64,000 bases of DNA from the NCBI GenBank assembly GCA_017553695.1, contig JAFZKG010000112.1, positions 19,975-83,974 on the forward strand, written 5' to 3'. The DNA is from Lachnospiraceae bacterium. GTDB lineage: Bacteria > Bacillota > Clostridia > Lachnospirales > Lachnospiraceae. The position numbers and the translations under genes are program-made. Positions within the stretch are counted from its first letter, which is position 1. Every line of letters starts with the position of its first letter. The notes beneath the pieces were generated by a model. It saw only the letters and a program-made list of their open reading frames with translations, had not been told where the DNA came from and did no database searches. This document shows, piece after piece, positions 10,318 to 31,157 of the stretch.

Positions 10318-12105
10318 ATGCAAGTCGTGAAAGAGTTGGAATACCCTTTTGACAGCGCCAATATCCTGAAAAAGAAAAAGTCCATCCGAAGACAGCTTCT
10401 GGAAGACGGAACCACCAGGATCCGCAAGAATATTGCGATCCTGGGCGGTTCGACGACGGCCAATGTGGCGCAGGTACTGGATCTGTTTCTGCTGCAGTAC
10501 GGGATCGAAGCATCCTTTTACGAAAGCGAATACAACAAGTATTATGAAGACGCCCTGTTCGGGAATCCGGATTTTGATGCGTTTGACGCGGATGTCATCT
10601 ATATCCACACGGGGATCCATAACGTCATAACTTTCCCGAAGATGCAGGATGACCGGGAAACGATCGATGCGAAATTGAATGCCGAGTTTGAACGTTTCCG
10701 TGCCGTGTGGGAGAAGTGTTTTGAAAAGAAAGGCTGCACGATCATCCAAAATAATTTTGAATATCCATCCTGGCGGCTTTTGGGAAATAAAGATGTGTCA
10801 GACATCCACGGAAGAGTCCGCTTTATCGCAAGGCTCAACCAGATGTTTGCGGATTACGCGGCAGAGACGGAAAACTTCTATATTCACGACGTGAACTATC
10901 TGAGCGCGAGATGCGGGATCGATACATGGTGCGATCCGTTCTACTGGAATATGTATAAATACTGTCCGGCAGTCCCATTGATCCCGGAACTATGTTTTTC
11001 TGTTGCAAACATCATCAAGTCGGTTTACGGGAAAAATAAAAAAGCGCTGGTACTGGATCTGGACAATACGCTGTGGGGCGGCATTGTCGGAGATGACGGA
11101 CCGGAAAATCTGGCGATCGGGCAGGAAAGCGGTCAGGGTGAAACTTATTACGAGTTTCAGGAATACCTGAAAGCGCAGAAGGATCTTGGCATTCTCCTGA
11201 ATATCGATTCAAAGAATGAATATGAGAACGCGATCGCAGGACTCAATGCCAAAGGCTCAGCACTAAGCCCGGAGGATTTCATCCTCATCAAAGCCAACTG
11301 GGATCCGAAAGACCGCAATCTCCTGGAAATCGCGAAGGAACTGAATCTGGGCGAAGACTCACTGGTCTTTGTGGATGATAATCCGGCGGAGCGGATGATC
11401 GTTTCCGAACAGGTCCCGGGTGTAGCCGTTCCGGAAATGGGAACACCGGAGACCTATATCCAAACCCTTGACCATTCCGGCTTCTTTGAAGTGACCAGCT
11501 TTTCTGCGGACGATCTGTCCCGGAATGATATGTACAAGGCAAACATCCAGCGGGAGCAGATGCAGTCGGCATTTGCGGACTATGAGGATTATCTGAAGAA
11601 TCTGGAGATGACAGCAGAGATCCTGCCATTTTCGAAAGAGGTGATCCCGAGGATCTCCCAGCTGACGAATAAGAGCAATCAGTTTAATCTGACAACGCTT
11701 CGGTGTTCCGTCGCTGACATAGAAGAAATGGCGGAGGATGAAAACTGGATCACGCTGTACGGGAAACTGGTGGATAAGTTCGGCGATAACGGTGTGGTCT
11801 CGGTGCTGGCAGCAGAGATTCGTCCGGATCATGCATACAGCCTTGGAAAAGAAGCGCATATCCGGCTGAATCTGATGAGCTGCCGTGTTCTGAAACGCGA
11901 CATGGAATTTGCCATGCTGGACGAACTGGTGCGAAAAGCAAAGGAAAAAGAGGTCACGACTCTGGTTGGCCACTATCTGCCGACGAAGAAGAATGGCATG
12001 GTGGCAGAACTCTATACTGACCTTGGCTTTCAGAAAGAAAACGATGTCTGGATCCTGGACGTCGCATCGTATCAGGATCAGTGTAAGGTGATAAAGATTA
12101 ATTAA
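10318..12105 (+). CDS. FkbH-like / HAD superfamily subfamily IIIC protein (candidate carrier-protein loader)
   Basis: 595 aa. 'LVLDLDNTLWGGIVGDDG' (HAD DxDxT), 'FVDDNPAER' and the C-terminal 'LMSCRVLKRDME' block typical of FkbH-like domains. RBS AAGGAG. Confidence 0.85.
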   Translation: MQVVKELEYPFDSANILKKKKSIRRQLLEDGTTRIRKNIAILGGSTTANVAQVLDLFLLQYGIEASFYESEYNKYYEDALFGNPDFDAFDADVIYIHTGIHNVITFPKMQDDRETIDAKLNAEFERFRAVWEKCFEKKGCTIIQNNFEYPSWRLLGNKDVSDIHGRVRFIARLNQMFADYAAETENFYIHDVNYLSARCGIDTWCDPFYWNMYKYCPAVPLIPELCFSVANIIKSVYGKNKKALVLDLDNTLWGGIVGDDGPENLAIGQESGQGETYYEFQEYLKAQKDLGILLNIDSKNEYENAIAGLNAKGSALSPEDFILIKANWDPKDRNLLEIAKELNLGEDSLVFVDDNPAERMIVSEQVPGVAVPEMGTPETYIQTLDHSGFFEVTSFSADDLSRNDMYKANIQREQMQSAFADYEDYLKNLEMTAEILPFSKEVIPRISQLTNKSNQFNLTTLRCSVADIEEMAEDENWITLYGKLVDKFGDNGVVSVLAAEIRPDHAYSLGKEAHIRLNLMSCRVLKRDMEFAMLDELVRKAKEKEVTTLVGHYLPTKKNGMVAELYTDLGFQKENDVWILDVASYQDQCKVIKIN

Positions 12106-12115
12106 AAGGAAAACC

Positions 12116-12370
12116 ATGATGGAAGAAAAGATTTATGAAACATTGAATGAAATATTCCGGGATGTCTTTGATGATGACGAGATCGTGGTGGATGCGAAGA
12201 CGAATTCCGATACGATCGAGGACTGGGACAGCCTGGAACATATCAATCTGGTGGTCGCCATTGAGAAGGCTTTCGGTCTGAAGTTCTCCATGGATGAGGT
12301 AACCGGAATGAAGGATGTGGGTGAAATGGTGGAGATCATCAAAGCCCGCGGAACGAAACTGGAGGATTAA
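12116..12370 (+). CDS. acyl carrier protein (classical ACP type)
   Basis: 84 aa, acidic. 'EDWDSLEHINLVVAIE' contains the DSL phosphopantetheine-attachment motif. Confidence 0.85.
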   Translation: MMEEKIYETLNEIFRDVFDDDEIVVDAKTNSDTIEDWDSLEHINLVVAIEKAFGLKFSMDEVTGMKDVGEMVEIIKARGTKLED

Positions 12371-12373
12371 CAA

Positions 12374-12598
12374 ATGAGAGAAAAAGTACTGGCGATCCTG
12401 AAAGAGGTCAATGAAGAGATCCCGGAATATGAAGGCGAAGGCCTTCTGGAGGATGGGATCATTGCATCGCTGGATGTGATCGAGATCGTCTCCGCACTGG
12501 AAGATGAATTCGGCATTGTCATTGCGGCAAGGAACATTACGAAAGAAAACTTCGCGACAGTGGACAGCATCTGCGCTCTGGTGGAAAGCCTGCAGTAA
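12374..12598 (+). CDS. DltC-like small carrier protein
   Basis: 74 aa. 'LEDGIIASLDVIEIVSALEDEFGI' resembles the DltC 'EEGLLDSFGTVELL' region, with Ser at the equivalent position. Lies directly upstream of an MBOAT gene, as in dlt operons. Confidence 0.7.
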   Translation: MREKVLAILKEVNEEIPEYEGEGLLEDGIIASLDVIEIVSALEDEFGIVIAARNITKENFATVDSICALVESLQ

Positions 12599-12601
12599 GA
12601 G

Positions 12602-14128
12602 TTGCTTATGACACTGGTCTCCGTTTCCTTCCTGATCTTCCTGGCGGCGGCTGTCCTGGTCTATTACCTGACACCGCAAAAAGGGCAGTGGATCGTATTG
12701 CTTCTGGCTAGCCTTGTTTTTTACTGGCTCTGTTCCAAAGGCTTTCTGATCTTTCTGCTGCTTTTCGCAGGGATCATATATGTCTTTGCAAGATCCTTTG
12801 AGACCGGGAAGAAAAAGCTTTTGGTCCTTCTGGAGGTTGCGATCCTGATCGTGCTCCTGATCGTCCTGAAGTATGCCGGATGGTTTGGGGACGGTTTCGT
12901 CCGTTTCCTTTCGACGATCAGTTTTCAGAAGCCGCTTTCATTTGTGGCACCGCTCGGGATCTCGTATGTGCTCCTGACAGGAATCGGATACTCAGTGGAC
13001 GTGTTCCGGGGAACCGTCACGGCGGAAAAGAACTTCCTGAAAGTATTGAGCTTTCTGTCGTTCTTCCCAGCCATCACGCAGGGACCGATCAACCGTTTTT
13101 CGGATCTGTCCGGTCAACTGATGGAAGGGCACCGTTTCTCTTATGAAGCGCTTGTTTTCGGAATCCAGCGGATGCTGTGGGGTTTCGTCAAAAAGCTGGT
13201 GATTGCCGGAAGGCTGAATGTGGTCATGCTGGAGCTGACCGGTTCCTGGCAGGGAAGCAAATATTCCGGCGCGTATGTGGTCCTTACCGTTGCCATCTGT
13301 TCGCTCAACATCTTTATGGATTTTTCGGGATGCATGGATATCGTGATCGGCGCGGCGGAGATCTTCGGGATCCGTCTGCCGGAGAATTTCGATCATCCGT
13401 ATCTGGCAAGATCCATGCCGGAGTTTTGGAGAAAGTGGCATATCACGCTTGGCGAATGGCTGCGTGATTACGTGATGTTCAGTTTCACGATGTCTGCGCC
13501 CGCCAAAAAAATGAACAAAAGCCTGAAGGGAAAGGTTGGCAGGAAAACAGCGGCTGCCCTGGTCAGTATTATCGGTGTGCTGTTCGTATGGCTGGTGTTT
13601 GGTCTCTGGCATGGGATCTCAGGCACCTTCCTGCTGGCAGCGGCATACTATGCGCTGCTCATTATCGGCGGCATCGTGATCGAAGAACCGGTCAAAAGAT
13701 TCCGTTCAAAATATCCGCAGTTTACGGAATCAAAAGGATTCCAGATATTCCGTACGGTGCGGACGTATTTCCTGGGAATCCCGGGCGCGTATCTGATGCT
13801 GATGCCGCAGGTCAAAAGCGGACTGCAATTCCTGGCGACAATTTTTACCCGCCCGGCCGCGCAGTTTGTGGTGAAGATCACGGAAGGCGAAGGTGCAGGG
13901 ACCTTTCTTCTGGGATTGGATATTTATGATTTTACAGTGCTGATCCTTTCGCTCATCCTGTGGCTCGTTGTGACAACGCTCCACAGAAAGAAGGATGTAC
14001 GGATCCGGCTTTCCAATATACATATTGTTCCGCGATGGGCCATCCTGCTGGCGGTGGTGATCGCCGTCGTGCTGTTTGGTTTTTACGGGGATCTGAATGC
14101 GGGAAGTTTTATTTATCAGGGTTACTAA
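12602..14128 (+). CDS. MBOAT family membrane O-acyltransferase (module 1, DltB/AlgI-like)
   Basis: 508 aa, polytopic. 'FFPAITQGPINRF' and the His block 'FWRKWHITLGEWLRDY'. The start may be TTG 12602 or ATG 12608. Confidence 0.9.
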   Translation: MLMTLVSVSFLIFLAAAVLVYYLTPQKGQWIVLLLASLVFYWLCSKGFLIFLLLFAGIIYVFARSFETGKKKLLVLLEVAILIVLLIVLKYAGWFGDGFVRFLSTISFQKPLSFVAPLGISYVLLTGIGYSVDVFRGTVTAEKNFLKVLSFLSFFPAITQGPINRFSDLSGQLMEGHRFSYEALVFGIQRMLWGFVKKLVIAGRLNVVMLELTGSWQGSKYSGAYVVLTVAICSLNIFMDFSGCMDIVIGAAEIFGIRLPENFDHPYLARSMPEFWRKWHITLGEWLRDYVMFSFTMSAPAKKMNKSLKGKVGRKTAAALVSIIGVLFVWLVFGLWHGISGTFLLAAAYYALLIIGGIVIEEPVKRFRSKYPQFTESKGFQIFRTVRTYFLGIPGAYLMLMPQVKSGLQFLATIFTRPAAQFVVKITEGEGAGTFLLGLDIYDFTVLILSLILWLVVTTLHRKKDVRIRLSNIHIVPRWAILLAVVIAVVLFGFYGDLNAGSFIYQGY

Positions 14129-15175: not shown

Positions 15176-15178
15176 ACT

Positions 15179-16654
15179 ATGGTATTTTCGAGTAACATCT
15201 TTCTATTTGTCTTTCTTCCTGTGACCTTACTGTTTTACTTTAACCCGTTTACGAAGAAATGTAAGGACGGCGGACGGACATTCAAGAATATTGTTCTGCT
15301 GATCGCAAGCCTCGTTTTTTACGGATGGGGCGAGCCGCGGTTTGTCTTCATCATGATGGCCTCGATCGTCCTGAACTACCTGATTGGAAGGGGACTCGGG
15401 AAATACGAAGCGAAGAGTATTCGCAGATGGCTGCTGGCCGCACTCCTGGTTTTGAACATCGGCCTTCTGTTCGTATTCAAGTATCTGGGTTTCGTGGCAG
15501 GGATATTCGGAGGAGCGATCTCCATCGCGCTTCCGCTCGGGATCTCGTTTTATACCTTCCAGATCCTGTCTTATGGACTGGATGTGTATTTTAACAAAGA
15601 TAAGGTGCAGAAAAACATTCTGCTCCTGGGCTTATATATTTCCATGTTTCCGCAGCTGGTCGCGGGACCTATCGTGCGGTATGGCGATGTTTCAGAAGAA
15701 CTGCTGAACAGGAAAGAAACGTCCGCAGATATCACCTACGGCGTGCGACGCTTTGTATATGGATTGGGAAAGAAAGTCCTTCTGGCGAACTTCCTGGCCA
15801 TCATCGCAGATTACGCGTTTTTAAGCCCGGGCACCAATTCTGTGATGACCAGCTGGCTGGGGACCATCTGCTATACGCTGCAGATCTACTTTGATTTTTC
15901 AGGGTATTCCGATATGGCCATTGGATTAGGACGTATCTTCGGATTCCATTTTCCGGAGAACTTCGATTATCCATATGTGTCGCTGTCATTTACGGAATAC
16001 TGGCGCAGATGGCATATGACACTGGGCAGCTGGATGCGGGACTATCTGTTCTATCCGCTGCAGAAGAGCGAAGGATTTGTCCATCTGGGCGGATGGGCAA
16101 GAGGCATCCTTGGAAAAAAGAAAGGAAAATATGTTCCGGCGATCTTATCGCTCCTGGTCCTGTGGCTGGCGATGGGTTTCTGGCACGGCGCAAACTGGAA
16201 CTTTGTTCTTTGGGGCCTTTTGTTCTTCGTACTGATGAGCTTTGAGAGCCTGTCCGGGATGGGGAAAAAGGCACTTCGGACGACAGGTGAAAAAGGCTTT
16301 CAGGCAAAAAAGATCGCCTATCACATTTATGTGGTCTTTTTCCTGCTGATTGCCTACGTGTTGTTCCGTGCAGACAGTCTGCCGCTTGCGTTCCGCTATA
16401 TCGGCAACATGTTTGGCGGCACCACAAACTCCTTCGTGGATCAAGACTTTTGGAAGTATTTGAAAAACATCCGGTTTCTGCTTCCGGCAGCGATCCTTCT
16501 GTGCACACCATTTGCCAGATGGATCAGCGGGAAGATAAAGAAACCGTTGGTAAGAGATATCGGAAGGGGTGTGGCCATCCTGGCCATCTTTGTCCTTTCC
16601 GTCCTGTCCATCGTGACAGAGTTTTACAACCCGTTTATCTATTTTAATTTTTAG
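15179..16654 (+). CDS. MBOAT family membrane O-acyltransferase (module 2, AlgI-type)
   Basis: 491 aa. 'FPQLVAGPIVRYGDV' and 'YWRRWHMTLGSWMRDYLFYPL'. Confidence 0.9.
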   Translation: MVFSSNIFLFVFLPVTLLFYFNPFTKKCKDGGRTFKNIVLLIASLVFYGWGEPRFVFIMMASIVLNYLIGRGLGKYEAKSIRRWLLAALLVLNIGLLFVFKYLGFVAGIFGGAISIALPLGISFYTFQILSYGLDVYFNKDKVQKNILLLGLYISMFPQLVAGPIVRYGDVSEELLNRKETSADITYGVRRFVYGLGKKVLLANFLAIIADYAFLSPGTNSVMTSWLGTICYTLQIYFDFSGYSDMAIGLGRIFGFHFPENFDYPYVSLSFTEYWRRWHMTLGSWMRDYLFYPLQKSEGFVHLGGWARGILGKKKGKYVPAILSLLVLWLAMGFWHGANWNFVLWGLLFFVLMSFESLSGMGKKALRTTGEKGFQAKKIAYHIYVVFFLLIAYVLFRADSLPLAFRYIGNMFGGTTNSFVDQDFWKYLKNIRFLLPAAILLCTPFARWISGKIKKPLVRDIGRGVAILAIFVLSVLSIVTEFYNPFIYFNF

Positions 16655-16656
16655 GA

Positions 16657-17958
16657 ATGGAACAAGAGGGAAAAGTTGAAAAGATCATAACGCGGATCGT
16701 CATCGGCATTCTGTTTGCCTTTCTGCTTTCGATCATCGTAGTCGCGATCCTGATCAAAGCAGGCAGAACAGAATTATTCCGCATGGATCACAGCATTGAG
16801 ACGAAAGTCTATGAGATCGGCAAAGAGGATAACGTCCTCCGAAAAGTCTCCAAAGGCTACAGCAATGCGGTGTATGCGGCAAAGAATTATACCGATGCCT
16901 ATTCCAATGATCTGCTGCTGGGACGGCGGAAGATCGTGGAGACAGAGGTGCGCTATAAGAACCTGATCGGGTTTAAGATTTACGCACCGGGCGAATACAA
17001 CAGCCTTCTGTACCTGGAGGATGGGTATCTGGCCAGTGCCAATCCGAAGGAGAGCCCGGAAGACATCCAGAAGATTGCGACCAAGATCAAAGGCCTTTCC
17101 GATACGGCCAAAGAAGCCGGCGCCACGTTCTTTTATATGCAGACGCCGGGCAACATTGATAAGTACGGGGATCCGGAGATCAACCAGGTGCAGGATTTTG
17201 CCAACTACAATGCCGACCTTCTGGTGGAAGATTTAAAGGCATATGGCATCGACTGCCTGGATATCCGGGACAACATGCATGTGGCATTTGATGACTACCG
17301 TTCCCTTTTCTTCCGGACAGATCATCACTGGAGGCAGCCGGTCGCACTTTGGGCGACGAATGAACTGTGTGCATATATGCAGGAGCAGTATGGATTTACG
17401 TATGATGCTTCCTATTATGACCCGGATCAATATGAGGTCGAGGTGCTGCCGGAGCATTATCTGGGATCACTTGGCAGAAAGGCGACCCTGGCTGAAACAA
17501 TGCCGGATGATTTTGAATTGATGCACCCGAAATTTGAAACGGACATGGAACTGTGTCTGGATAAAAAGGGACCATTCGCGGAAAAATATGAGCAGGAAGG
17601 AAGCTGGGAAATCCTTTATGACCGCGAGGAAATGGAATACGATGATATTTACTGGAGAGAGTGTTATCTGGCACTGCTGGCTTTCTACGGAACCGGGAAA
17701 GCGTCTGTGAAAAACGTTCTGGCAGATAATGAAACAACAATCGCGATCGTGGGAGATTCTTTATGCATTCCGGTCACAGCTTTTCTTGCCCTGAATGCGA
17801 AAAAGGTCGTCCTTATCGATCCGCGGTATTTTGACGGCAGTATTAAGGATTATATATTAAAGACAAAACCGGATTTCGTGATCAGTTCCTATTCGACCAC
17901 GATCATCCAGGATTATTATCCGATCTTTGATTTTGATAAACAGCATGAAAAGCAATAA
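16657..17958 (+). CDS. DHHW-motif (AlgJ/AlgX-like) extracytoplasmic acyltransferase partner (module 2)
   Basis: 433 aa. N-terminal TM anchor, 'FFRTDHHWRQP' DHHW motif and 'IVGDSLCIP'. Confidence 0.75.
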   Translation: MEQEGKVEKIITRIVIGILFAFLLSIIVVAILIKAGRTELFRMDHSIETKVYEIGKEDNVLRKVSKGYSNAVYAAKNYTDAYSNDLLLGRRKIVETEVRYKNLIGFKIYAPGEYNSLLYLEDGYLASANPKESPEDIQKIATKIKGLSDTAKEAGATFFYMQTPGNIDKYGDPEINQVQDFANYNADLLVEDLKAYGIDCLDIRDNMHVAFDDYRSLFFRTDHHWRQPVALWATNELCAYMQEQYGFTYDASYYDPDQYEVEVLPEHYLGSLGRKATLAETMPDDFELMHPKFETDMELCLDKKGPFAEKYEQEGSWEILYDREEMEYDDIYWRECYLALLAFYGTGKASVKNVLADNETTIAIVGDSLCIPVTAFLALNAKKVVLIDPRYFDGSIKDYILKTKPDFVISSYSTTIIQDYYPIFDFDKQHEKQ

Positions 17959-19989: not shown

Positions 19990-19998
19990 GGGAACGAA

Positions 19999-20436
19999 AT
20001 GAACAGATATACCTTTGATGAGATCGAAGTCGGGATGGAGGACGGATTTGACGTTGCCGTGACCGAAGCAATGATGGAGACCTTCCGCGATCTGACGGGC
20101 GATGTGAATCCGCTGCACTGCGATGATGCCTTTGCGAAAGAAAAGGGATTTGATGGGAAAGTGGCCTATGGCATGCTGACCGCCTCCTTCCTTTCCACGA
20201 TGGCAGGTGTATATCTGCCGGGGGAGAATTCCCTGATCCAAAGTGTGGAGGTGAAGTTTTCCAAACCGGTCTTTCCGGGAGATGTGATCGCATTCCGCGG
20301 AAAAGTGAGCGAGAAAAATGATACCTTTCAGTTTCTGACGCTCAAGGTCACGGGAACAGTTACAGAGTGCGAAAATAAAGAGCGCTGCGGAACAAAAGTT
20401 CTGAAAGCAGTGATGCAGATAGGAGTCATGAAATGA
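19999..20436 (+). CDS. MaoC-like (R)-hydratase/dehydratase hot-dog protein
   Basis: 145 aa. 'FRDLTGDVNPLHCDDAFAKEKGFDGKVAYGML' matches the MaoC dehydratase signature. Confidence 0.85.
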   Translation: MNRYTFDEIEVGMEDGFDVAVTEAMMETFRDLTGDVNPLHCDDAFAKEKGFDGKVAYGMLTASFLSTMAGVYLPGENSLIQSVEVKFSKPVFPGDVIAFRGKVSEKNDTFQFLTLKVTGTVTECENKERCGTKVLKAVMQIGVMK

Positions 20437-22956: not shown

Positions 22957-23961
22957 ATGAAGGCCTTGAAAACGACCGGAAAAATCATACTGATCCTGTT
23001 GCCGGTGATCCTCGTCTGGATCTATCTGGCCGTATTCCCTGTCAACTATATGGACGGGGAGTATTCCTATTATCAGGAGGCAAAAGATTACCGGCGGGGA
23101 AAGACTTCGCAGGAAAAAGCGGATGTGCTGATCCTGGGCGATTCCCGGGCAAAGTCTGCTTTTCTTCCGGAACTGCTGGATGAACTGGGCGGGTCCGAAA
23201 ACTGTGTTTCGCTTGCACAGGGTGGATCGACTTCTGTAGAAGCCTATTATGCGCTGAAGGAATACATGGAAAATATGGGTGTGCCGGACAAGGTGGTCCT
23301 TTCCGTAAGTGCCTATCATTTTACCAGTTTCGACGGGTTCTGGACCCGGACCGTTTATTTTGACACGATCACATATTCGGACGCGATGGACGTGATCCGC
23401 GCGGTGAAAAAGAATGGAGAAAAGCAGGCTTTGAAAGACGCCGGTGGCGACAGCGTCTTTACGCTTCTGGAATATAAGATCCAGTCACCGACCAAATACA
23501 TGACGCCGCTTGTCAACTCTTTTTCGGAAGACCGCAGGCAGATCAATGAGGATGCATACCGGGAAATGGAAGAACACAAAGGATTCAAGACCTTTGTGAG
23601 CTGGTGGCCGGTCAGCGGGGAATATGACATGACTGAGTTTGTCATGCTCAAGACCCTCGATGAGTATTACCGGAAGATTCTGGATCTTTGCAATGAATAT
23701 GATATTGAGCTTTATTCCATGAACACGCCGCTGATCGAAACGACATTCGAAGAGTGCCGGAAGATCTGGGAGCCGTTCATGGGTTATTTTAAAGATTTGA
23801 AAAACGATTACCCGGAAGATGTTTATCCGGGTATCCATATTGAGACGACGATTGAAAGCTATGACGAAAAATACTTTGATGATGCCGACCACCTGAACGA
23901 GGAAGGCGCCAGAGTCTATACGAAATGGTTTTACGAGACATATCTGGAGGCGGCATCATGA
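22957..23961 (+). CDS. DltD-like / SGNH-fold extracytoplasmic partner protein (module 3)
   Basis: 334 aa. TM anchor 'IILILLPVILVWIYLAVF'. 'VLILGDSRAKSAF' (GDS block I) and 'DDADHLNEEG' (DxxH block V). Confidence 0.7.
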   Translation: MKALKTTGKIILILLPVILVWIYLAVFPVNYMDGEYSYYQEAKDYRRGKTSQEKADVLILGDSRAKSAFLPELLDELGGSENCVSLAQGGSTSVEAYYALKEYMENMGVPDKVVLSVSAYHFTSFDGFWTRTVYFDTITYSDAMDVIRAVKKNGEKQALKDAGGDSVFTLLEYKIQSPTKYMTPLVNSFSEDRRQINEDAYREMEEHKGFKTFVSWWPVSGEYDMTEFVMLKTLDEYYRKILDLCNEYDIELYSMNTPLIETTFEECRKIWEPFMGYFKDLKNDYPEDVYPGIHIETTIESYDEKYFDDADHLNEEGARVYTKWFYETYLEAAS

Positions 23962-25445
23962 GTTTCTTAAGTCTGATCTTTTTCATTTTTCTGGCCGTCT
24001 GTGTCGTGGTGTATTATCTGGTGCCGAAGAAGGGACAGTGGATCGTCCTTCTATGTGCAAGCATCGTCTTTTACGGCTATGCGACACGCATGGGACTGCT
24101 TGCCCTGCTGGCAGAAACACTGATCATATATCTGCTTGTCCGTTGGATGGAGCAGAAGCCGGAAAATGCGAAAAAGATCCTGGTACTCATCTGCGTTCTG
24201 GCGGCAGTTGCCATGCTGCTTCTGCTGAAATACCTGCCGGAAAGTCTGGGCGGAAAGAGCGTCTTTTCCGGATGGTTTTTCAAAGACCTGCTGATGTCAC
24301 TGGGAATCTCCTACTACACACTGATGATCATCAGTTACGCAGTAGACGTGTACCGGGAACAGATCCCGGCAGAGACCAATTACGCCAGGTTGGTACTGTT
24401 TGCGTTTTATTTTCCGTCCATTACGCAGGGTCCGATCAACCGATATGGGGACCTTTCACCGCAGTTCTATGAAGTGCACATGTTTGACGGGGACGCATTT
24501 TTCAAAGGACTTTTCCGTTTTGCATGGGGCTGCTTTAAGAAACTGGTAATCGCTAACCGTACCGCCGCTTTGATCACGGCTGTGTATGGAAGTCAGAAAT
24601 CGACCTGTGTGATCATCCTTCTGGCGTTGTTATTGACTATGCTGCAGCTGTATACTGACTTTTCCGGTTGCGCGGACATGGCGATTGGCGTCAGCCAGGT
24701 ATTGGGAATCCACCTTCCGGAAAATTTCCGTCAGCCGTATTTTTCCCGAAGTATCGAGGAATATTGGCGCAGATGGCACATTACATTAGGCGCCTGGCTG
24801 AAAGATTATATTTATTATCCGATCTCCGTGAGCGGTGCATCCAAGTGGTTTATTAAAAAAGGCGCGGACCGGCAGGCAAAAAAACGAAGGACAAAACTGG
24901 TATCCATTGTTGCACTGATGATCCTCTGGATCATCATGGGAATCTGGCATGGCAGTGGTATGAAGTTTTTTATCATGGGTGTGTATTACGGCGTGGTCTT
25001 CATTATCACAATGCTGCTGGCGCCAATCGCAGAGCGTTTTGACAAAAAACATCCGAAACTTGTGGCATCACCGCTGTATAAGTTCTGGCAGCAGGTGCGT
25101 ACGGTCCTATTACTGTGGCTGGCGCCGATCCTTTTCAGCGTAAAGGATCTTAGCCAGTTGAAGACCCTGGTCAGCAAAGTGTTTACCGGTTTCCGCTTTG
25201 GCACGCTGTTTGACGGTACGCTGCTGAAGTTTGACCTGGACGCTTTGCAACTGATCCTGCTGGCAGTCGGATTTCTATCATTGCTAGTGGTATCTGTCAT
25301 CGAGTACAATAAAAAAGAAACAATCAGCGAACTGGTGAGAGGACAGAAATGGTTCGTGCAGATTCTTGCCTGGTGGTATGTGATCATCCTGATCCTTCTT
25401 TCGCTGAATATTGCAAATACGGAATTTATATATGCACAGTTTTAA
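23958..25445 (+). CDS. MBOAT family membrane O-acyltransferase (module 3, close paralogue of module 1)
   Basis: Start taken at ATG 23958 (MSFLSLIFF..), which gives an ATGA overlap with the upstream stop. 'YFPSITQGPINRYGD' and 'YWRRWHITLGAWLKDY'. The N-terminus 'VVYYLVPKKGQWIVLLCASIVFY' nearly matches module 1 'LVYYLTPQKGQWIVLLLASLVFY'. Confidence 0.9.
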   Translation: MSFLSLIFFIFLAVCVVVYYLVPKKGQWIVLLCASIVFYGYATRMGLLALLAETLIIYLLVRWMEQKPENAKKILVLICVLAAVAMLLLLKYLPESLGGKSVFSGWFFKDLLMSLGISYYTLMIISYAVDVYREQIPAETNYARLVLFAFYFPSITQGPINRYGDLSPQFYEVHMFDGDAFFKGLFRFAWGCFKKLVIANRTAALITAVYGSQKSTCVIILLALLLTMLQLYTDFSGCADMAIGVSQVLGIHLPENFRQPYFSRSIEEYWRRWHITLGAWLKDYIYYPISVSGASKWFIKKGADRQAKKRRTKLVSIVALMILWIIMGIWHGSGMKFFIMGVYYGVVFIITMLLAPIAERFDKKHPKLVASPLYKFWQQVRTVLLLWLAPILFSVKDLSQLKTLVSKVFTGFRFGTLFDGTLLKFDLDALQLILLAVGFLSLLVVSVIEYNKKETISELVRGQKWFVQILAWWYVIILILLSLNIANTEFIYAQF

Positions 25446-26148
25446 TATCTTATTTCCTGTCTATAACGAAGAAAACCGGCTGGAACGGGGAATCCGGGAG
25501 ACGGCTTCCTTTTTGACACACTATCTGCCGGAAGAAACGTTTCATCTGACGATCGTGGATAACGCGTCGACGGACAAGACAGAAGAAATCGCAAAAAAGC
25601 TTGCGGAAGAATATCCGGAAGTGACATATATCCGGATCAGCGAGAAAGGCGTCGGAGCCGCATTCCGCGCAGGCGTGGCGCAGAATACGTCAGAAATCGT
25701 TGGCTACATGGACGTGGATCTTTCCACGGATATCCGTCATCTGCTTTCGGTGGTGAGCCTGTTCGAAGATGATCCGGCAATCATGATGGTGAATGGATCC
25801 AAACAGGCAAAAGGAGCGCGGACGATCGGACGGAAATGGTACCGCAACCTGACATCCAAAGGACTGACGATGGTGATGAAGGCAAGACTGGGGATGCAGC
25901 AGGCAGATGCCATCTGCGGATTCAAGTTTTTCCGCAAAGATTTTGTGGAAGAGTTGATTCGGCAGTCAGACATAACAGAGAACGGATGGTTCTTCATTAT
26001 CGAGTTATTGATCCGGGCAGAGCGCAGCGGTGAGGAAATCGTGGAACTCCCGGTACGGTATGTGGAAGAAGAAGGCGGTCATGTGCATGTGGTCCGCCAG
26101 ACCTTAGATTATTTAAGCAACATAGAAAAACTCAGGAGGAGATTGTAA
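25432..26148 (+). CDS. GT2 glycosyltransferase (DPM1/polyprenyl-phosphate glycosyltransferase-like, soluble)
   Basis: Start taken at ATG 25432 (MHSFNILFPVYNEE). 'TIVDNASTDKT' and 'GYMDVDLSTD' (DxD). Confidence 0.8.
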   Translation: MHSFNILFPVYNEENRLERGIRETASFLTHYLPEETFHLTIVDNASTDKTEEIAKKLAEEYPEVTYIRISEKGVGAAFRAGVAQNTSEIVGYMDVDLSTDIRHLLSVVSLFEDDPAIMMVNGSKQAKGARTIGRKWYRNLTSKGLTMVMKARLGMQQADAICGFKFFRKDFVEELIRQSDITENGWFFIIELLIRAERSGEEIVELPVRYVEEEGGHVHVVRQTLDYLSNIEKLRRRL

Positions 26149-27684
26149 ATGGAATTCAAGCGTTTGACGGAACTGTTGGATAAGGCTGTCACGGATGTGC
26201 CGGAAAAGATTGGTTTCGTTGATGAAGACGGTACAAAGACTTATCGGCAAATGCAGGAGGAATCTCTGAAGATCGCGAAGGCAATCGTGAGGACGACCGG
26301 CGAAGATCCAGCAGCCATTGGAGAAAAAGATCCGCAGCCGGTCGCAACGCTGATCGAGGCAGGCAATGATCTTGCTGCCTGCATGCATGGAATCCTTTAT
26401 GCCGGAGATTATTATTCCTGCATTGACGAGACTATGCCGAATGAGCGGATCGAGAAGATTTTTGAAACGCTTGAGCCGGTGATCCTTTTGACCAATCGCG
26501 AAACCGAAGCAAAGGCCCGGGAGATTCATTTTGACGGCTATGTGATGGTTTATGAGGACATCATGGAAAAAGAGGAAGAAGCATTTGAACTCCCGATGAT
26601 CGTAGAAGAAGAAGTCTCGCATAAACTGGCGAGCGTGGTATTCACTTCCGGGTCCACCGGAAATCCGAAGGGTGTCATGCAGGGACATAACGGGATCCTG
26701 TATTGTTCCATCGCCAACCGGGATGATGTGCAGGTCATTTTCTCGGATCATGTCGGAAATCAATCCCCGATGTATTATGTCATGGGTGTCCTGAATCTGT
26801 TTTTCTCCATTGCGGCGGAAGCGACCTGCTATTTCATGCCGAAAGAACTGTTCAGCCAACCGGGTGAGCTCGTGAAATATCTGGCCGAAAACCAGATTTC
26901 TGTCATGGATTGGGTCGCAAGCGCTGTTACAGTGATCTCCCGTTTTTCCGCCTGGGAAGGCTATGAGGAAGAGTTGAACAATTGCATTAGACAGATCGTT
27001 TTTGCCGGAGACGTTGCGTCTACGAAACTGATCAATAAAATGAAAAAAGCTGTTCCGGGTCCTCGCTATTCACAAGGGTACGGAGCGTCGGAATTTTTCT
27101 ATACGTTCCTGTATCCGATGGAGCGCGAGATTGCGGATGATGAAAGGGTCCCTCTGGGATATCCGGCAGAGTTTGTCACGGCATATATCATCAAAGACGA
27201 TGGAACAGAGGCTCAGGTCGGCGAAGAAGGACAGCTGTGTCTGGCCGGACCAGGCATCGGGCTTGGCTATCTGAAAGACGAGGCATCCACCGCTGAAAAA
27301 TATCAGGATAATCCTCTGAAGCCGGGAGAGACGATCTACTGTACCGGTGATATCGTGGAAAAGAATGAGTATGGCGAAGTCATCTTCAAGAGCCGCCGGG
27401 ATTTCATGATCAAGCATATGGGACACCGTGTGGAACTTGGCGAGATCGAACTGGCGGCCTGCGCGCTGGATGACCGGATGCAGTGTGCCTGCATCTTCAA
27501 TAAAGATACAGAGCATATCATCATGTGCTACGTGGGGGCCTTGGAAGAGAAAGAACTGCGTGAGAAACTGAAAGAAAAAGTACCGCGTCATATGGTACCG
27601 AACCGGTTCGTGCGGATGGACAACCTGCCGCTGAATCAGAATAACAAAGTAGACAGAAAGAAGCTGGAAGAGCTGTATTTCTGA
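26149..27684 (+). CDS. stand-alone adenylation enzyme (DltA-like, ANL superfamily)
   Basis: 511 aa. A3 'VVFTSGSTGNPKGV', A7 'YCTGDIV', A8 'RRDFMIKHMGHRVELGEIE' and A10 'NNKVDRKKL'. Confidence 0.88.
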   Translation: MEFKRLTELLDKAVTDVPEKIGFVDEDGTKTYRQMQEESLKIAKAIVRTTGEDPAAIGEKDPQPVATLIEAGNDLAACMHGILYAGDYYSCIDETMPNERIEKIFETLEPVILLTNRETEAKAREIHFDGYVMVYEDIMEKEEEAFELPMIVEEEVSHKLASVVFTSGSTGNPKGVMQGHNGILYCSIANRDDVQVIFSDHVGNQSPMYYVMGVLNLFFSIAAEATCYFMPKELFSQPGELVKYLAENQISVMDWVASAVTVISRFSAWEGYEEELNNCIRQIVFAGDVASTKLINKMKKAVPGPRYSQGYGASEFFYTFLYPMEREIADDERVPLGYPAEFVTAYIIKDDGTEAQVGEEGQLCLAGPGIGLGYLKDEASTAEKYQDNPLKPGETIYCTGDIVEKNEYGEVIFKSRRDFMIKHMGHRVELGEIELAACALDDRMQCACIFNKDTEHIIMCYVGALEEKELREKLKEKVPRHMVPNRFVRMDNLPLNQNNKVDRKKLEELYF

Positions 27685-27699
27685 TAAGAGTATTTCATT

Positions 27700-28548
27700 A
27701 TGGGTCTTCGCATCACATCCATGCTGATAATTGAATATGCGCGCAATCACTACGACGCTGACCTGTCGGAAACACTGACGCTGGGCCGTCAGTTCCGCGC
27801 GTTCTCCCGCAGGGAGTTCGCAAAATATTTGCCTTCTTACGCCAAGGTGATCGCGCCGGATAAACTCTCGAAGGACTTTCACAGTCCTTATGCGGAAGAA
27901 GTGTTTGCGGATATGTATGGATCCCGGCCAAAGAGCCTGGACGGCTTTGCACATGAAGAACCGGACATCCTGCATGATCTGAACAAGCCGGTCCCGGATG
28001 AACTGACAGAGCGTTTTTCCTGTCTGATCGACGGCGGCACGATGGAGCATGTATTCCATGTGCCGATGCTGCTGCATAACTGTTTTTCCATGCTGAAGGT
28101 GGGCGGGCTTTACATTTCCATGGTGCCGACGAATAACTTCAATGGCCATGGCCTATATCAATTCTCACCGGATTTCTTCTACAGCACGTTTTCGGCGCAA
28201 AATGGGATGGAACTCCTGGACGTCTTCATTGTGAAATTTTCCGCGAAGGATAAAGTTTGGAAGATCGCCCAGTCTCCAAAGGAAGCCGGCGGGCGGGTGC
28301 AGTTTGACGTGAATACGCAGACTGAGATCTATGTGATCGCGCGGAAGACGGGGAAGACGCCGGAGGAGATCACAGCGCAGCAGACGGATTATGAAGAAGG
28401 CTGGTATGAAGAGCAGAAGAGCATTACGAATACCGCAAAGCGCGATGCCTTGATCGAGAAGGCCCCTCGCAAGCTCGTCTATCTTTTCCGCCAGTTCCTC
28501 TATGAACCGCTGAAACGGCGGAAAAATATCACAAAGATCAAGCTATGA
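27700..28548 (+). CDS. class I SAM-dependent methyltransferase-like protein
   Basis: 282 aa. 'FSCLIDGGTMEHVFH' and 'MLKVGGLYISMVP' resemble methyltransferase post-I/II motifs. Motif I is weak. Confidence 0.55.
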   Translation: MGLRITSMLIIEYARNHYDADLSETLTLGRQFRAFSRREFAKYLPSYAKVIAPDKLSKDFHSPYAEEVFADMYGSRPKSLDGFAHEEPDILHDLNKPVPDELTERFSCLIDGGTMEHVFHVPMLLHNCFSMLKVGGLYISMVPTNNFNGHGLYQFSPDFFYSTFSAQNGMELLDVFIVKFSAKDKVWKIAQSPKEAGGRVQFDVNTQTEIYVIARKTGKTPEEITAQQTDYEEGWYEEQKSITNTAKRDALIEKAPRKLVYLFRQFLYEPLKRRKNITKIKL

Positions 28549-29585
28549 AACAACGGGTACAGTGGGCGGATATCTTAAAATGGATCGGCATGCTCTTGAT
28601 TTACTTGGGGCATCTGCCGGTTTCTGACAACACGTACCTGTTTATTTTTGCACAGCATGTCCCGCTGTTTTTCTTTGCGGCGGGGTTTTTTGCTGCTTTG
28701 GAGCCACGGGACGGATCCTTCTGGTCATTTCTGTTGAAAAAGATCCGGTCAATCCTCCTGCCGTACGCCATTTTTTCCATTCTGACCATTCTCTATTTCC
28801 TGATCGTGAAGACGCGCAGCTTTTCCGAAGTGCCGAAGATGCTGTTGGATACCCTTATGGGAATCCGGAATCAGACGCCGGCGATCCAACTCTGGTTTCT
28901 GCCTTGTCTGTTTGTGATCAGCGTGTTTTTTGAAATCCTGAAGCGGATCTTCCGGGTGAAATGGATCCTGGCGGTAGTGGCGATTGCGCTTTTTGCCATC
29001 GGTATCACCTGCCTTGGACACCAGCCGACTCAGGACCCTTCCTGGTTTTGGAATGTGGATTCTGCCATGGTCTATTTTATTTATTATTATTTGGGGGCAT
29101 TGCTGTTCCCGCTCTTCCGCGACTGGAAATATGGTACGAAAAAAGCCGGGGTCAAAGCCCTCTGGTGGATCTTCTTTCTCATCTCACTTGGTTATGAAGT
29201 GTATCTCCTGTTTGACAGTATGCGCTTTTCTGCATTGCTGCGGGGTGCACTGGGGGAAACCGGCTTTATGGTCGCAAATCTCATCAGCGCCTGCGTGCTG
29301 CTTTTCTGCATGACTTGCCTGGCAAGATTATTGGAAAAGATTCCGGGTGTTGGAAAGTTTCTGGCATTTATCGGAAAAGGAAGCCTGTATTTGAACGGAA
29401 ACGAGATGATCTTCAAGGGCCTGTTTGCCCTTCTGTTTGGTCTGATCGGGATCAAAGGGTTTGTTTATCAGAACGATGCGACCATGCTTATGTTCTGCGT
29501 CCTTCTGATGATCCTGTTAACTTTCACGGTCAATCTGTTGGAGAAACTTATCTTTGGCAAACTTTTTGGAAACACACGCAGATAA
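28545..29585 (+). CDS. acyltransferase family 3 (AT3) membrane O-acyltransferase
   Basis: 346 aa, about 10 TM segments. N-terminal 'VQWADILKWIGMLLIYLGH' is typical of AT3 proteins. ATGA overlap with the upstream gene. Confidence 0.8.
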   Translation: MKQRVQWADILKWIGMLLIYLGHLPVSDNTYLFIFAQHVPLFFFAAGFFAALEPRDGSFWSFLLKKIRSILLPYAIFSILTILYFLIVKTRSFSEVPKMLLDTLMGIRNQTPAIQLWFLPCLFVISVFFEILKRIFRVKWILAVVAIALFAIGITCLGHQPTQDPSWFWNVDSAMVYFIYYYLGALLFPLFRDWKYGTKKAGVKALWWIFFLISLGYEVYLLFDSMRFSALLRGALGETGFMVANLISACVLLFCMTCLARLLEKIPGVGKFLAFIGKGSLYLNGNEMIFKGLFALLFGLIGIKGFVYQNDATMLMFCVLLMILLTFTVNLLEKLIFGKLFGNTRR

Positions 29586-29681
29586 TCAGGAATTGCCTAT
29601 ATCGGGCGGCCTGTGTTATCTTGTTTATGATAAATAGATGAGCATTGCTTGATAGCAGACAATAAGGAAAGGAGCAAAAAA

Positions 29682-31157
29682 ATGGGTGAATTCAGACTGA
29701 AACCAGGTATTCCGTTCGAGGGAACATCAATAGCCGAGGAGGCCCCTGAGGGCAGTATCCGCAACAACACAAATTCCAATACACACATTCCTCCGCATCC
29801 GCCGGTGCTGAAAAGCAAAGTCTTTGCAGATGGCATCGAGGACAGCTGGCTGGAATATATTCCAGATGACCTGAACAAAGAGGCAAAGCCACCACTTATC
29901 ATCGCCTGCCATGGCGGTGGGGCACAGGCTCAGTGGCAGTTTGAAGAGACTTCCTGGTGCTATATCGCAGAGCAGGAAGGATGCGTTGCCGTATTTCCAA
30001 ATGCCGGCGGCGTCCGCAGGGCATGGCTGACGGTTGATGATCCGGAGAAGGCGAACGAACTGCCAAATATGATGGAGATTTTTGGCTCCTCTCCGGATGG
30101 ACGCGTTCCGGAGACCCACCATCACATTCAGTTTCTGAAAGCTCTGATCAAAGAAATGCACGAGCAGTATAACATTGATGAAGGCAGGGTCTATCTGCAG
30201 GGCATGTCGATGGGAGATATCATGACCATGATGTTTGCCCGTGTCTGCGGCGACCTTCTGGCAGGCATCGACAGCACGGCTGGCCCATCGGCGCAGATCG
30301 CACTGTTTGATGAAGAGGGGAACGTGAAAGCCTCCAAGTGCCCGGTACCGGTGTATCAGTCCCGCGGTGAGCTGGATGATATCGTGGCTGCCCCTGTTGC
30401 AGGAAAAGAAAACACCACCCGTCAGGATGTCAACTACGTGAACCGGGAATACTGGCTGAAAGTAAATGAATGCGATTCCCTGCCGCGTCTTTCCATCCTG
30501 GATGTGAACAACTTCGCTTTCTATACCGGGAAAAAGGCCAATCTGGTGTACCGGGATGTGAAACACAGATCCCACGGTCAGACTCTGGACGATGCTTACT
30601 GGGCATGGAACACCTTGTTCAAGGGAACGCGCCGCAACCCGGATGGCAGCATCAGCTGTCTGGATACGGACTATTCCGCACGGGGAGACGTGGATGCCGC
30701 AGCACTTTGCGACGGCTGTGAATATGCCTACATTAACAATAGCCGCGTGAAACTGGAGGCTCCGGCTTTCCTGGAGACCATCACGAACTTTGATTTTAAC
30801 GTCCACCACCGCGTGGATTACAAGCAGGAACTGTACGTGCCAGTGAGTTTCCTGAGTCAGTATTTTGACATTGGCGTGGATTACGCTGCGGATGGACGCA
30901 GTGCCATTCTTCATTGCCCGGAAGGAGACTGCGAGATCGCGGAGGCAAGCGTGGGCACTCTGTGGAACGGATTCCTGAGATCCATGTTCATGCCGGTCGT
31001 CCGGAAGGACGGCATACTCTTCGTGGCAGTGCGCTGGTTCGCGCAGGTCATTTTCAGCATGCATGTCACGGAATGCGATGGCGCAATGTACATCTCTGAT
31101 CATCATGGAGAGATGAGTAAGGACATGGCATATATCATTAAGGAGATACTCTCCTGA
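29682..31157 (+). CDS. alpha/beta-hydrolase esterase (PHB-depolymerase/LpqC-like) with C-terminal copper-amine-oxidase-N-like 'stalk' domain
   Basis: Start taken at ATG 29682 after the RBS GGAAAGGAG. 'LIIACHGGG' and the nucleophile elbow 'GMSMGD'. The C-terminal 'YVPVSFLSQYFDIGVDYAADGRSAIL' is stalk-domain-like. No obvious signal peptide. Confidence 0.7.
   Translation: MGEFRLKPGIPFEGTSIAEEAPEGSIRNNTNSNTHIPPHPPVLKSKVFADGIEDSWLEYIPDDLNKEAKPPLIIACHGGGAQAQWQFEETSWCYIAEQEGCVAVFPNAGGVRRAWLTVDDPEKANELPNMMEIFGSSPDGRVPETHHHIQFLKALIKEMHEQYNIDEGRVYLQGMSMGDIMTMMFARVCGDLLAGIDSTAGPSAQIALFDEEGNVKASKCPVPVYQSRGELDDIVAAPVAGKENTTRQDVNYVNREYWLKVNECDSLPRLSILDVNNFAFYTGKKANLVYRDVKHRSHGQTLDDAYWAWNTLFKGTRRNPDGSISCLDTDYSARGDVDAAALCDGCEYAYINNSRVKLEAPAFLETITNFDFNVHHRVDYKQELYVPVSFLSQYFDIGVDYAADGRSAILHCPEGDCEIAEASVGTLWNGFLRSMFMPVVRKDGILFVAVRWFAQVIFSMHVTECDGAMYISDHHGEMSKDMAYIIKEILS

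Follow-up and report, generated by a model that had tools for sequence, protein, structure and literature searches.

A Lachnospiraceae operon places three MBOAT modules beside two carrier proteins and their putative loaders

Introduction

Which acyl group an envelope-acylating MBOAT protein exports, and from which donor it takes that group, is the question raised by an operon at positions 10318-31157 of the window, a 64,000-nucleotide (nt) stretch of a Lachnospiraceae bacterium genome (contig JAFZKG010000112.1, positions 19,975-83,974 of the forward strand, assembly GCA_017553695.1). The charge and immune visibility of Gram-positive envelopes, as well as their resistance to lysozyme and antimicrobial peptides, are set by acyl decorations, among them D-alanyl and O-acetyl esters. 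In the current picture, the systems that install them fall into two classes, namely Dlt, with a carrier protein, DltX, and D-alanine, and acetyl-CoA-fed MBOATs with a fused shuttle tail. The operon encodes three MBOATs, each next to an SGNH-like partner, together with two carrier proteins, an FkbH-like loader, and an adenylation enzyme. Along with a related cassette, drawn from at least 594 FkbH-encoding stretches in a scan of one genome per GTDB species, it points to a third class, in which a fused-tail MBOAT would be served by a dedicated carrier charged by FkbH from a glycolytic intermediate.

In the proposed mechanism, each MBOAT would take an activated acyl group on the cytoplasmic side and pass it to the tyrosine of its own FxYxxF tail on the outer face, and this tyrosine would hand it to the serine of the single-pass partner to give an ester on an extracytoplasmic glycopolymer. 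Such a relay from MBOAT through tyrosine to SGNH partner has been demonstrated, namely for PatA/PatB and DltB/DltX/DltD (PMC12148441). On balance, the evidence somewhat favors a composite cell-envelope acylation locus, in an uncultured gut Lachnospiraceae, of three MBOAT and SGNH-like modules, two of them carrier-fed and one an acetyl route. The genes present, their motifs, the DltD-like fold of P1, and the recurrence of the cassette are observed, while all substrates, the carrier assigned to each MBOAT, and the acceptor are inferred. The broader proposal is more tentative and falls slightly short of an even chance: that gut Firmicutes (Lachnospiraceae, Oscillospiraceae, Erysipelotrichaceae, and others) use an FkbH-loaded, carrier-dependent MBOAT-SGNH pathway to install glyceroyl or lactoyl esters on wall or lipoteichoic glycopolymers. 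If true, it would overturn the working rule that fused-FxYxxF MBOATs use acyl-CoA donors only, predict hydroxyacyl esters as new surface substituents of abundant gut commensals, and reveal a previously unrecognized branch of envelope chemistry widely used by gut Firmicutes. The window would then contain the most elaborate example known, a single operon that combines two carrier-fed routes with an acetyl route.

Organization of the operon

Gene families were assigned by Pfam and NCBIfam profile searches, with equivalog or gathering cut-offs as stated for each model. The operon comprises 20 open reading frames (ORFs), all on the + strand and with intergenic gaps of -35 to +63 nt, and ATGA start/stop overlaps are found at 19063, 20433, 21164, 22099, 23958, and 28545. 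Both features agree with a prediction made earlier from the sequence alone (the original prediction), which had described about 20 tightly spaced, co-directional genes and six such junctions. The gene order is FkbH, an acyl carrier protein (ACP1), a second carrier protein (CP2), MBOAT1 and partner P1, MBOAT2 and partner P2, a flavin adenine dinucleotide (FAD)-dependent oxidoreductase, the glycosyltransferase GT2a, a MaoC-type dehydratase (MaoC), a short-chain dehydrogenase/reductase (SDR), an epimerase-like protein (Epi), a TIM barrel protein, partner P3, MBOAT3, the glycosyltransferase GT2b, an adenylation enzyme (A domain), the methyltransferase-like U282, an AT3 acyltransferase, and an esterase. 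This arrangement is beyond chance, as it recurs in independent metagenome contigs and metagenome-assembled genomes (MAGs) with protein identities of 49-91%. ENA metagenome contigs carry identical or near-identical loci, and the closest named relatives are Lachnospiraceae and Parasporobacterium MAGs.

The genes can be arranged into three putative modules. Module 1 would consist of FkbH, ACP1, MBOAT1, and P1, plus MaoC and SDR encoded further along, and Module 2 of MBOAT2 and P2, while Module 3 would consist of P3, MBOAT3, GT2b, the A domain, and U282, plus CP2 encoded after ACP1.

The FkbH-carrier-MBOAT-partner cassette

The FkbH-like loader (10318-12105, +) contains FkbH_N, HAD-IIIC, and C-terminal domains and scores 266.6 bits on TIGR01686 (2.8e-79) against a cut-off of 146.65, with a further match to TIGR01681 (2.2e-16), so that the FkbH-like HAD-IIIC protein of the original prediction is borne out. 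Its residues 21-397 match PDB entry 3slr, and a comparison of 12 homologues shows HAD motif I (DLDNT) and Cys522 (within MSCRV) to be invariant. More than 8000 relatives are found at E <1e-10, most of them unnamed or labelled 'HAD-IIIC family phosphatase'. ACP1 (12116-12370, +) is an 84-amino acid (aa) protein with the attachment serine in WDSLEH, and it starts 10 nt downstream of FkbH as a dedicated stand-alone carrier adjoining the loader. It scores 23.1 bits on the PP-binding model, above the gathering cut-off of 20.8, and lies under every AcpP equivalog cut-off.

To follow the conservation of this pair, 80 species loci were sampled from the FkbH-encoding stretches and their six-frame ORFs were searched with the window proteins. 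Most of these loci come from Lachnospiraceae and Oscillospiraceae, with further MAGs assigned to Bacilli, Erysipelotrichaceae, and other groups, and genera such as Eisenbergiella, Kineothrix, and Pseudobutyrivibrio appear only as MAGs; counts out of 83 also include three near-identical source contigs (L001-L003). An ACP1 homologue follows FkbH in 78 of the 83 loci. In 72 of the 80 species loci, a full-length, same-strand MBOAT lies within 10 kilobases (kb) of FkbH (median distance 665 base pairs, bp), and in 59 loci it is within 3 kb; at least 59 of the FkbH-associated MBOATs end in an FxYxxF-type tail. MaoC homologues (32/83), usually adjoining the ACP, and SDR homologues (24/83), usually beside MaoC, the ACP, or the MBOAT, accompany FkbH less often. 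Loci L086 and L087 carry a six-gene form, FkbH-ACP-MBOAT-partner-MaoC-SDR, embedded in a glycan cluster that differs from that of the window and includes aminoethylphosphonate genes and a gene for a Wzy_C protein. As a cassette, FkbH-ACP-MBOAT-partner is conserved and widespread, and MaoC and SDR often accompany it; the co-occurrence of FkbH-like, ACP, MBOAT, and DltD-like genes, suggested with the original prediction as a check, is thus a recurrent feature.

The recurring FkbH-ACP-MBOAT-partner units contain no ketosynthase, condensation, thioesterase, or cytoplasmic acyltransferase genes. Since ketosynthases, condensation domains, and thioesterases are missing from these units, the MBOAT is the sole evident consumer of the loaded carrier, and it is likely that FkbH and its ACP feed the adjacent MBOAT.

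MBOAT proteins and the fused tail

MBOAT1 (12602-14128, +; Pfam MBOAT 2.4e-14; histidine block WRKWHITLGEW; tail FIYQGY) more likely starts at the ATG at 12608, and gene callers give a protein of 506 aa. MBOAT2 (15179-16654, +; 2.3e-18; WRRWHMTLGSW; FIYFNF) and MBOAT3 (23958-25445, +; 2.4e-15; WRRWHITLGAW; FIYAQF) complete the set, and all of the histidine blocks quoted in the original prediction are present, with Pfam E-values from 2e-14 to 2e-18. The three proteins are 491-508 aa long; in pairwise BLAST comparisons MBOAT1 and MBOAT3 share 38% identity, while MBOAT2 shares 30-33% with each and is the most divergent. The closest PDB match of MBOAT1 is DltB (6bug, 3.2e-23), but all three remain at 142-168 bits on the DltB model TIGR04091 (150.5 for MBOAT1 and 168.5 for MBOAT3), under the cut-off of 375.

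All three MBOATs terminate in the FxYxxF-type motif. A DltX-like small ORF is not found, as within the operon and its flanks only the three MBOATs have C-termini of this type. Four other FxYxxF-type endings occur in the 64-kb window, at 48341-63456, and as these sit at least 17 kb away, the operon has no DltX. In Dlt, the FXYXXF acyl-shuttle motif resides on the microprotein DltX, whereas in PatA, AlgI, and WssH the MBOAT itself carries it, fused on two extra helices, and the motif tyrosine of PatA is auto-acetylated and then serves PatB (PMC12148441). Judged by sequence, MBOAT1-3 have the PatA/AlgI architecture and not that of DltB plus DltX.

The locus thus shares features with two known systems. 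As in Dlt, a carrier would be charged in the cytoplasm, an MBOAT would pass the acyl group outward, and a single-pass DltD-like SGNH partner would finish the reaction; moreover, the closest solved relative of MBOAT1 is DltB, the best structural match of P1 is DltD, and the best family match of CP2 is DltC. In contrast to Dlt, no operon protein reaches the Dlt equivalog cut-offs, the operon lacks DltX and fuses FxYxxF to the MBOAT (DltB being ~400 aa without a fused tail), one loader is FkbH instead of an adenylation enzyme, and the A domain lacks the aspartate that binds the alpha-amino group. The resemblance to PatA/PatB, PatA1/PatB1, AlgI/AlgJ/AlgX, and WssH/WssI lies in MBOATs of ~490-510 aa whose C-terminal extension terminates in FxYxxF, in the catalytic histidine blocks with an adjacent extracytoplasmic SGNH/AlgX-type partner, and, for PatA1/PatB1, in P2, an AlgX/DHHW protein whose closest solved relative is PatB1. 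However, these non-Dlt MBOAT/SGNH pathways are described as working without a carrier protein because acyl-CoA is the donor (PMC12148441), whereas the operon encodes two carriers and two loaders, and the FkbH-ACP pair is conserved beside such MBOATs in most of the 80 sampled species. As its fused-tail MBOATs adjoin two carrier and two loader genes, the locus is at odds with the no-carrier statement of PMC12148441. With a carrier that would feed an MBOAT and then a DltD-like partner, scores under the Dlt equivalog cut-offs, and a PatA-type fused tail, the locus appears to combine the two known classes and to add a new loader.

The original prediction of several parallel, carrier-fed, Dlt-like routes therefore needs qualification: MBOAT/partner modules with carriers and two loaders are present, but there are two carriers for three MBOATs, MBOAT2 and P2 are PatA1/PatB1-like and probably carrier-free, and the likeness to Dlt is limited by the unmatched equivalogs, the fused tails, and the missing DltX. 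In the full-text literature searched, no description of this architecture was found, an absence within the searched library and not proof, and the view that the gene combination is not a characterized pathway agrees with this. Searches for FkbH plus MBOAT returned cyanobacterial peptide papers only, and those for FkbH with Lachnospiraceae returned nothing.

Alternatively, all three MBOAT/partner pairs could be ordinary acetyl-CoA-dependent O-acetyltransferases of the PatA/PatB or AlgI/AlgJ type, with the loaders, carriers, MaoC, and SDR serving a separate cytoplasmic task, for example a glycerate- or lactate-containing polymer building block or a lipid that never passes through an MBOAT. The fused FxYxxF tail on every MBOAT, typical of acyl-CoA-using MBOATs, and the statement that non-Dlt pathways are carrier-free (PMC12148441) would agree with this, as would the FkbH genes without a detectable ACP in L010, L012, L013, and L032 and the operon GT2 enzymes, which could use a modified precursor. 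Yet such a division of labor is unlikely, given the same-strand MBOAT close to FkbH-ACP in 72 of 80 species loci (median 665 bp), the absence from the minimal FkbH-ACP-MBOAT-partner unit of any other gene to unload the carrier, and the carrier-dependent DltB as the closest solved relative of MBOAT1.

Extracytoplasmic partners

P1, P2, and P3 each carry one N-terminal hydrophobic helix, and a single-pass partner beside each MBOAT had been predicted correctly for all three; the motifs RTDHHW, LGDSRAK, and DDADHLN are found as described, while the reported DSSHF reads DSSSHF. P1 (14129-15175, +) has no match in Pfam or among PDB sequences, and searches of the P1 profile and of P3 against PDB chains gave nothing meaningful by sequence, so structure comparison alone was informative. 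An AlphaFold2 model built on 23 homologues (predicted local distance difference test score, pLDDT, 86; predicted template-modelling score, pTM, 0.86) shows a DltD-like SGNH domain after the N-terminal transmembrane (TM) helix, and its best Foldseek match is DltD of E. faecium (6pfx, E 1.2e-4, TM-score 0.40), followed by GDSL/SGNH proteins, other DltD structures, and PatB. The candidate catalytic residues of P1 are Ser50 (GTS) and His296 (SHFN).

P3 (22957-23961, +) is a single-pass SGNH-like protein with the motifs GDS and DDADHLN and a DUF1574 score of 26.7 bits, just under the gathering cut-off of 29.1. It aligns to the P1 family with hhalign at E 1.8e-4 over 239 columns, and an iterated P1 profile built from the sampled loci matches it at 5e-42. 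These profile comparisons place P1 and P3 in one family of distant homologues that lacks a good Pfam model, and the structural model gives this family a DltD-like SGNH fold. Among its 62 members, G-x-S (Ser50) is kept in 94% and H-x-N-x-x-G (His296) in 98%, and this near-invariant serine and histidine fit an SGNH nucleophile and base. In source contig L002, whose FkbH protein is identical, the P1 gene (9490-10536) is split into ORFs of 149 and 159 aa, reflecting either a frameshift or an assembly error.

P2 (16657-17958, +) is of the AlgX/DHHW type (Pfam ALGX 6.2e-8), also single-pass and SGNH-like. Its closest PDB match is PatB1 of B. cereus (5v8d, 4.3e-6), a secondary-cell-wall-polysaccharide O-acetyltransferase, with the TDHHW motif aligned, and P2 is itself a probable O-acetyltransferase. 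As the pair resembles PatA1/PatB1, MBOAT2 and P2 probably transfer acetyl and need no carrier, so Module 2 would draw on acetyl-CoA. The AT3 acyltransferase encoded near the end of the operon (28545-29585, +; Acyl_transf_3 4.8e-21), a stand-alone protein with ~10 TM segments, is likewise a probable acetyl-CoA-dependent O-acetyltransferase, and acetyl would thus be added by both MBOAT2/P2 and AT3. The AT3 gene is present in the related operon of L084 and absent from that of L085.

Candidate acyl groups of Module 1

FkbH is predicted from its family to form a glyceryl-S-carrier from 1,3-bisphosphoglycerate, which in Module 1 would be glyceryl-S-ACP1. MaoC (19999-20436, +; MaoC_dehydratas 8.4e-24) is an (R)-specific hydratase/dehydratase whose hydratase-2 motif LTGDVNPLH, as read from the sequence, is intact, and the SDR (20433-21167, +; adh_short 6e-25) is a FabG-like ketoreductase with an intact YxxxK. 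By analogy, MaoC is predicted to remove water from glyceryl-ACP, leaving pyruvoyl-ACP, which the SDR would reduce to lactyl-ACP, and MBOAT1 and P1 would then export the hydroxyacyl group. In relatives without MaoC and SDR, the group transferred would be glyceryl. A lactyl product where both enzymes are present is a tentative assignment, somewhat less probable than its opposite.

A loading logic of FkbH, dehydratase, ketoreductase, and ACP has been proposed for lactate starter units in trans-acyltransferase polyketide synthases. The locus offers the matching set of activities (FkbH, dehydratase, ketoreductase, and carrier), but here they are free-standing, with a MaoC-type dehydratase and a classical SDR as reductase. 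Similarly, the FkbH glyceryl-S-ACP synthases of polyketide pathways, such as those for methoxymalonyl-ACP and tetronates, resemble the present pair, with FkbH above the curated cut-off and a stand-alone ACP directly after it. In contrast, the operon has no polyketide synthase, FabH-like enzyme, or FkbG, FkbI, or FkbK homologue, and the presumed consumer is an MBOAT in a cell-wall glycan locus of anaerobic gut Firmicutes.

FkbH might also load something other than glycerate. MaoC and SDR could then give a 3-hydroxybutyryl-type group, or the FAD enzyme and the methyltransferase-like protein could help to form a hydroxymalonyl/methoxymalonyl-type group. Such a reading is improbable, the least likely of the alternatives considered, as FkbH scores far above the curated FkbH-domain cut-off with HAD motif I intact, and the widespread core cassette lacks the FAD, methyltransferase-like, and esterase genes. 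The resemblance of MaoC and SDR to PhaJ/FabG-type enzymes in NCBIfam, the thiolase and FabG-like SDR between MaoC and MBOAT in L072, and the PHB-depolymerase-like esterase encoded in the window speak for it. The FAD-dependent and methyltransferase-like proteins parallel the oxidation and methylation of methoxymalonyl-ACP synthesis by function only, and they are not homologues of FkbI, FkbK, or FkbG. A methoxymalonyl-ACP pathway made up of the FAD enzyme, the SDR, and the methyltransferase-like protein was rejected, as these are not FkbI/FkbK/FkbG homologues and are absent from the core cassette.

Several observations weigh against the composite reading with its three modules. Six genes separate MaoC and SDR from FkbH and ACP1 in the window, the two enzymes could act on another substrate, and the dehydration-then-reduction route to lactyl is drawn by analogy with polyketide loading modules. 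The acyl group could also be changed by the FAD oxidoreductase, Epi, the TIM barrel protein, and the methyltransferase-like protein. Which carrier serves which MBOAT is ambiguous, since locus L004/L085 keeps FkbH, ACP1, CP2, and the A domain without MBOAT1 and P1, and in L010, L012, L013, and L032 FkbH lies beside an MB2-type MBOAT with no ACP detected. Furthermore, an Oscillospiraceae variant has no SGNH partner adjoining its MBOAT, the L085 operon is flanked by housekeeping genes with no adjacent glycan cluster, and the TM-score of 0.40 between P1 and DltD is modest.

The variant loci are themselves diverse. In L010 (7326-15943, from an isolate of Gallintestinimicrobium propionicum), FkbH lies between two MBOAT-partner pairs with no ACP gene nearby. 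L048 (9965-14221) and L064 (9971-14234), both from Oscillospiraceae/Ruminococcaceae, hold FkbH, ACP, an MBOAT with the tail FIYARI, and a 206-aa HAD-like protein, with no adjacent SGNH partner. L072 (490-10644, an Erysipelotrichaceae MAG) encodes FkbH, ACP, MaoC, a reverse-strand AT3, a thiolase, and a FabG-like SDR, followed by a 442-aa partner, an MBOAT, a DltC-like carrier, and an acyl-CoA-ligase-type ANL protein, and thus has two loaders and a single MBOAT.

The adenylation enzyme and CP2

CP2 (12374-12598, +) is a DltC-like carrier of 74 aa with its serine in IASLD and a PP-binding score of 23.3 bits. Both small ORFs of the operon thus pass the PP-binding model (23.1 and 23.3 against 20.8 bits) and have a serine in DSL or ASL context, which upholds the two carrier proteins originally predicted. 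The best NCBIfam match of CP2 is DltC (NF003464, 4.3e-10), at 39.5 bits against a cut-off of 68, and on TIGR01688 it reaches 24.6 against 52.35 bits. CP2-like genes adjoin A domains in L072, L089, and L090, and from this neighborhood CP2 is presumed to be the partner of the stand-alone adenylation enzyme.

The A domain (26149-27684, +; AMP-binding 1.9e-49) is a stand-alone enzyme of the non-ribosomal peptide synthetase type. While the predicted ANL adenylation enzyme is present, its description as DltA-like does not stand: it scores 199 bits on a DltA model with a cut-off of 476 and 190 bits on TIGR01734 (DltA) with a cut-off of 559.85, and it lacks Asp235. On TIGR01733 it reaches 245.6 bits against 317.4, and its best PDB matches are LgrA and GrsA, with DltA weaker. 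Asp235 of the A4 motif, which binds the substrate alpha-amino group, is replaced by valine in MYYVMG in two LgrA alignments, and across the clade (~20 proteins, 49-87% identity) the position holds V, A, or G, while relatives at no more than 38% identity keep the aspartate (FYFDNS). Because Asp235 is absent across the clade, the A domain is not considered a D-alanine ligase, and D-alanine is an unlikely substrate by sequence. The enzyme is predicted instead to charge CP2 with an acid that has no alpha-amino group, and in Module 3 this carrier would serve MBOAT3 and P3.

The A-domain clade always occurs within the block P3-MBOAT3-GT2b-A-U282. GT2b (25411-26148, +; Glycos_transf_2 1.1e-23) is a soluble GT2 glycosyltransferase. 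In the window, L084, and L085 alike, its gene separates MBOAT3 from the A domain, and U282 lies directly downstream of the A domain. U282 (27700-28548, +) is a 282-aa, class-I methyltransferase-like protein, assigned through homologues only and with no Pfam match of its own; it belongs to a large family, and 12 of 30 homologues match Methyltransf_23, the best at 9.7e-6. An AlphaFold2 model of U282 from a single sequence (pLDDT 35) was discarded.

Locus L089 holds an A domain, a CP2-like carrier, an MB3-type MBOAT (tail FMYQSF), and a P1-family partner together, and this gene set supports the A domain and CP2 serving MBOAT3 and P3, while L090 has the A domain and CP2-like carrier only. Judging from the genes of these two loci, carrier-fed MBOAT modules seem to be common in Lachnospiraceae beyond the FkbH type. 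The stand-alone A domains that accompany the CP2-like carriers in L089 (4780-10432) and L090 (5959-7747) contain Asp235 and lie in Lachnospiraceae glycan clusters, and L089 also holds two formyltransferase-like genes.

The acceptor and the neighboring glycan cluster

Downstream of the operon lie CapF/CapE/CapG-like sugar-nucleotide genes, a GT4, a GT2 with DUF2304, a double GT8, an LCP ligase, and three large membrane protein genes without a Pfam match, and this neighborhood is a wall-polysaccharide cluster. The acceptor would be a wall or lipoteichoic glycopolymer. The original prediction had named the polysaccharide made by the neighboring genes; adjacency is the sole basis for this choice, and it is weakened by the L085 operon, which is not beside a glycan cluster.

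The carrier-fed modules could accordingly be right while their target is lipoteichoic acid, a membrane glycolipid, the polyprenyl-phosphate sugar of GT2a, or a surface protein, instead of the neighboring LCP-attached polysaccharide. We regard this as unlikely, since polysaccharide clusters enclose or border the modules in the window, L084, L086, L087, and L089, and no lipoteichoic acid synthase was seen in the window. It would nevertheless account for the L085 operon among housekeeping genes, and it is in line with the polyprenyl-phosphate-sugar-type GT2 of the operon, the presence of a DUF6077 membrane protein, and the action of DltD itself on lipoteichoic acid.

The three large downstream genes are consecutive (36887-41788; 591, 639, and 413 aa), and none of their products matches a Pfam family at E up to 5. 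Their position makes it likely that they are membrane proteins of polymerase-, flippase-, or GT-C-like type. The third of these positions is taken by a Polysacc_synt protein in L084.

Accessory genes and flanking regions

GT2a (19063-19989, +; Glycos_transf_2 2.5e-17) is a GT2 protein with two C-terminal TM helices that is PgfS/ArnC/GtrB-like (PgfS 4e-21 and ArnC-like 1.3e-10, both under the cut-off) and a probable polyprenyl-phosphate sugar synthase. It is preceded by the FAD-dependent oxidoreductase of the DAO family (17927-19066, +; Pfam DAO 7.3e-15), while Epi (21164-22102, +; Epimerase 7.3e-6), an NAD-epimerase/reductase-like protein, and the xylose-isomerase-like TIM barrel protein (22099-22947, +; AP_endonuc_2 6.7e-14) follow the SDR and are kept in L004, L084, and L085. 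The FAD oxidoreductase, GT2a, and Epi recur jointly in the window (17927-22947), L079 (18650-21685), L084, and L085, with the TIM barrel as a further member in three of these (window, L084, and L085). The composition of this group suggests a branch that may modify a polyprenyl-phosphate sugar.

The last gene of the operon encodes an esterase of the PHB-depolymerase family with a Cu_amine_oxidN1 domain (29649-31157, +; NF050058 1e-20, under the cut-off; Abhydrolase_2 8.4e-7). No signal peptide or TM segment is found in it, and the gene is absent from the related operons of L084 and L085. The AT3 acyltransferase and esterase of the original prediction are thus both present, yet the esterase may not be part of the system, and its membership is doubtful. 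A role as a dedicated de-acylase was rejected, as the protein has no export signal and is not conserved. A 750-aa ORF on the opposite strand (29727-31979, -), which overlaps the esterase gene in antisense and extends across the intergenic region beyond it, was taken as a non-coding shadow ORF.

Scans for promoter and terminator patterns were uninformative, with promoter-like counts the same as in shuffles and terminator-like matches mostly within membrane-protein genes. That the operon ends before 31290 is weakly hinted at by a terminator-like site (31182-31199) with a promoter-like site (31225-31254) after it.

Upstream of the operon are genes for valyl-tRNA synthetase, a class A penicillin-binding protein, DapA, and DapB, and a divergent gene for a polytopic DUF6077 membrane protein (8172-10130, -; Pfam DUF6077 5e-67) with ~13 hydrophobic segments. 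The DUF6077 gene, divergent from FkbH in the window, abuts it co-directionally in L004 (7978-9984), lies downstream of FkbH-MBOAT-partner in L010 (14768-15943), and co-occurs with FkbH and an MB2-type MBOAT in L012, L013, and L032. From this linkage, the protein may be an associated membrane enzyme, such as a glycosyl- or acyltransferase. Finally, five tRNA genes (Gly, Arg, His, Gln, and Lys) lie further downstream in the window, within 55982-56890, followed by a lysine riboswitch (56695-56890) upstream of genes starting at 56948.

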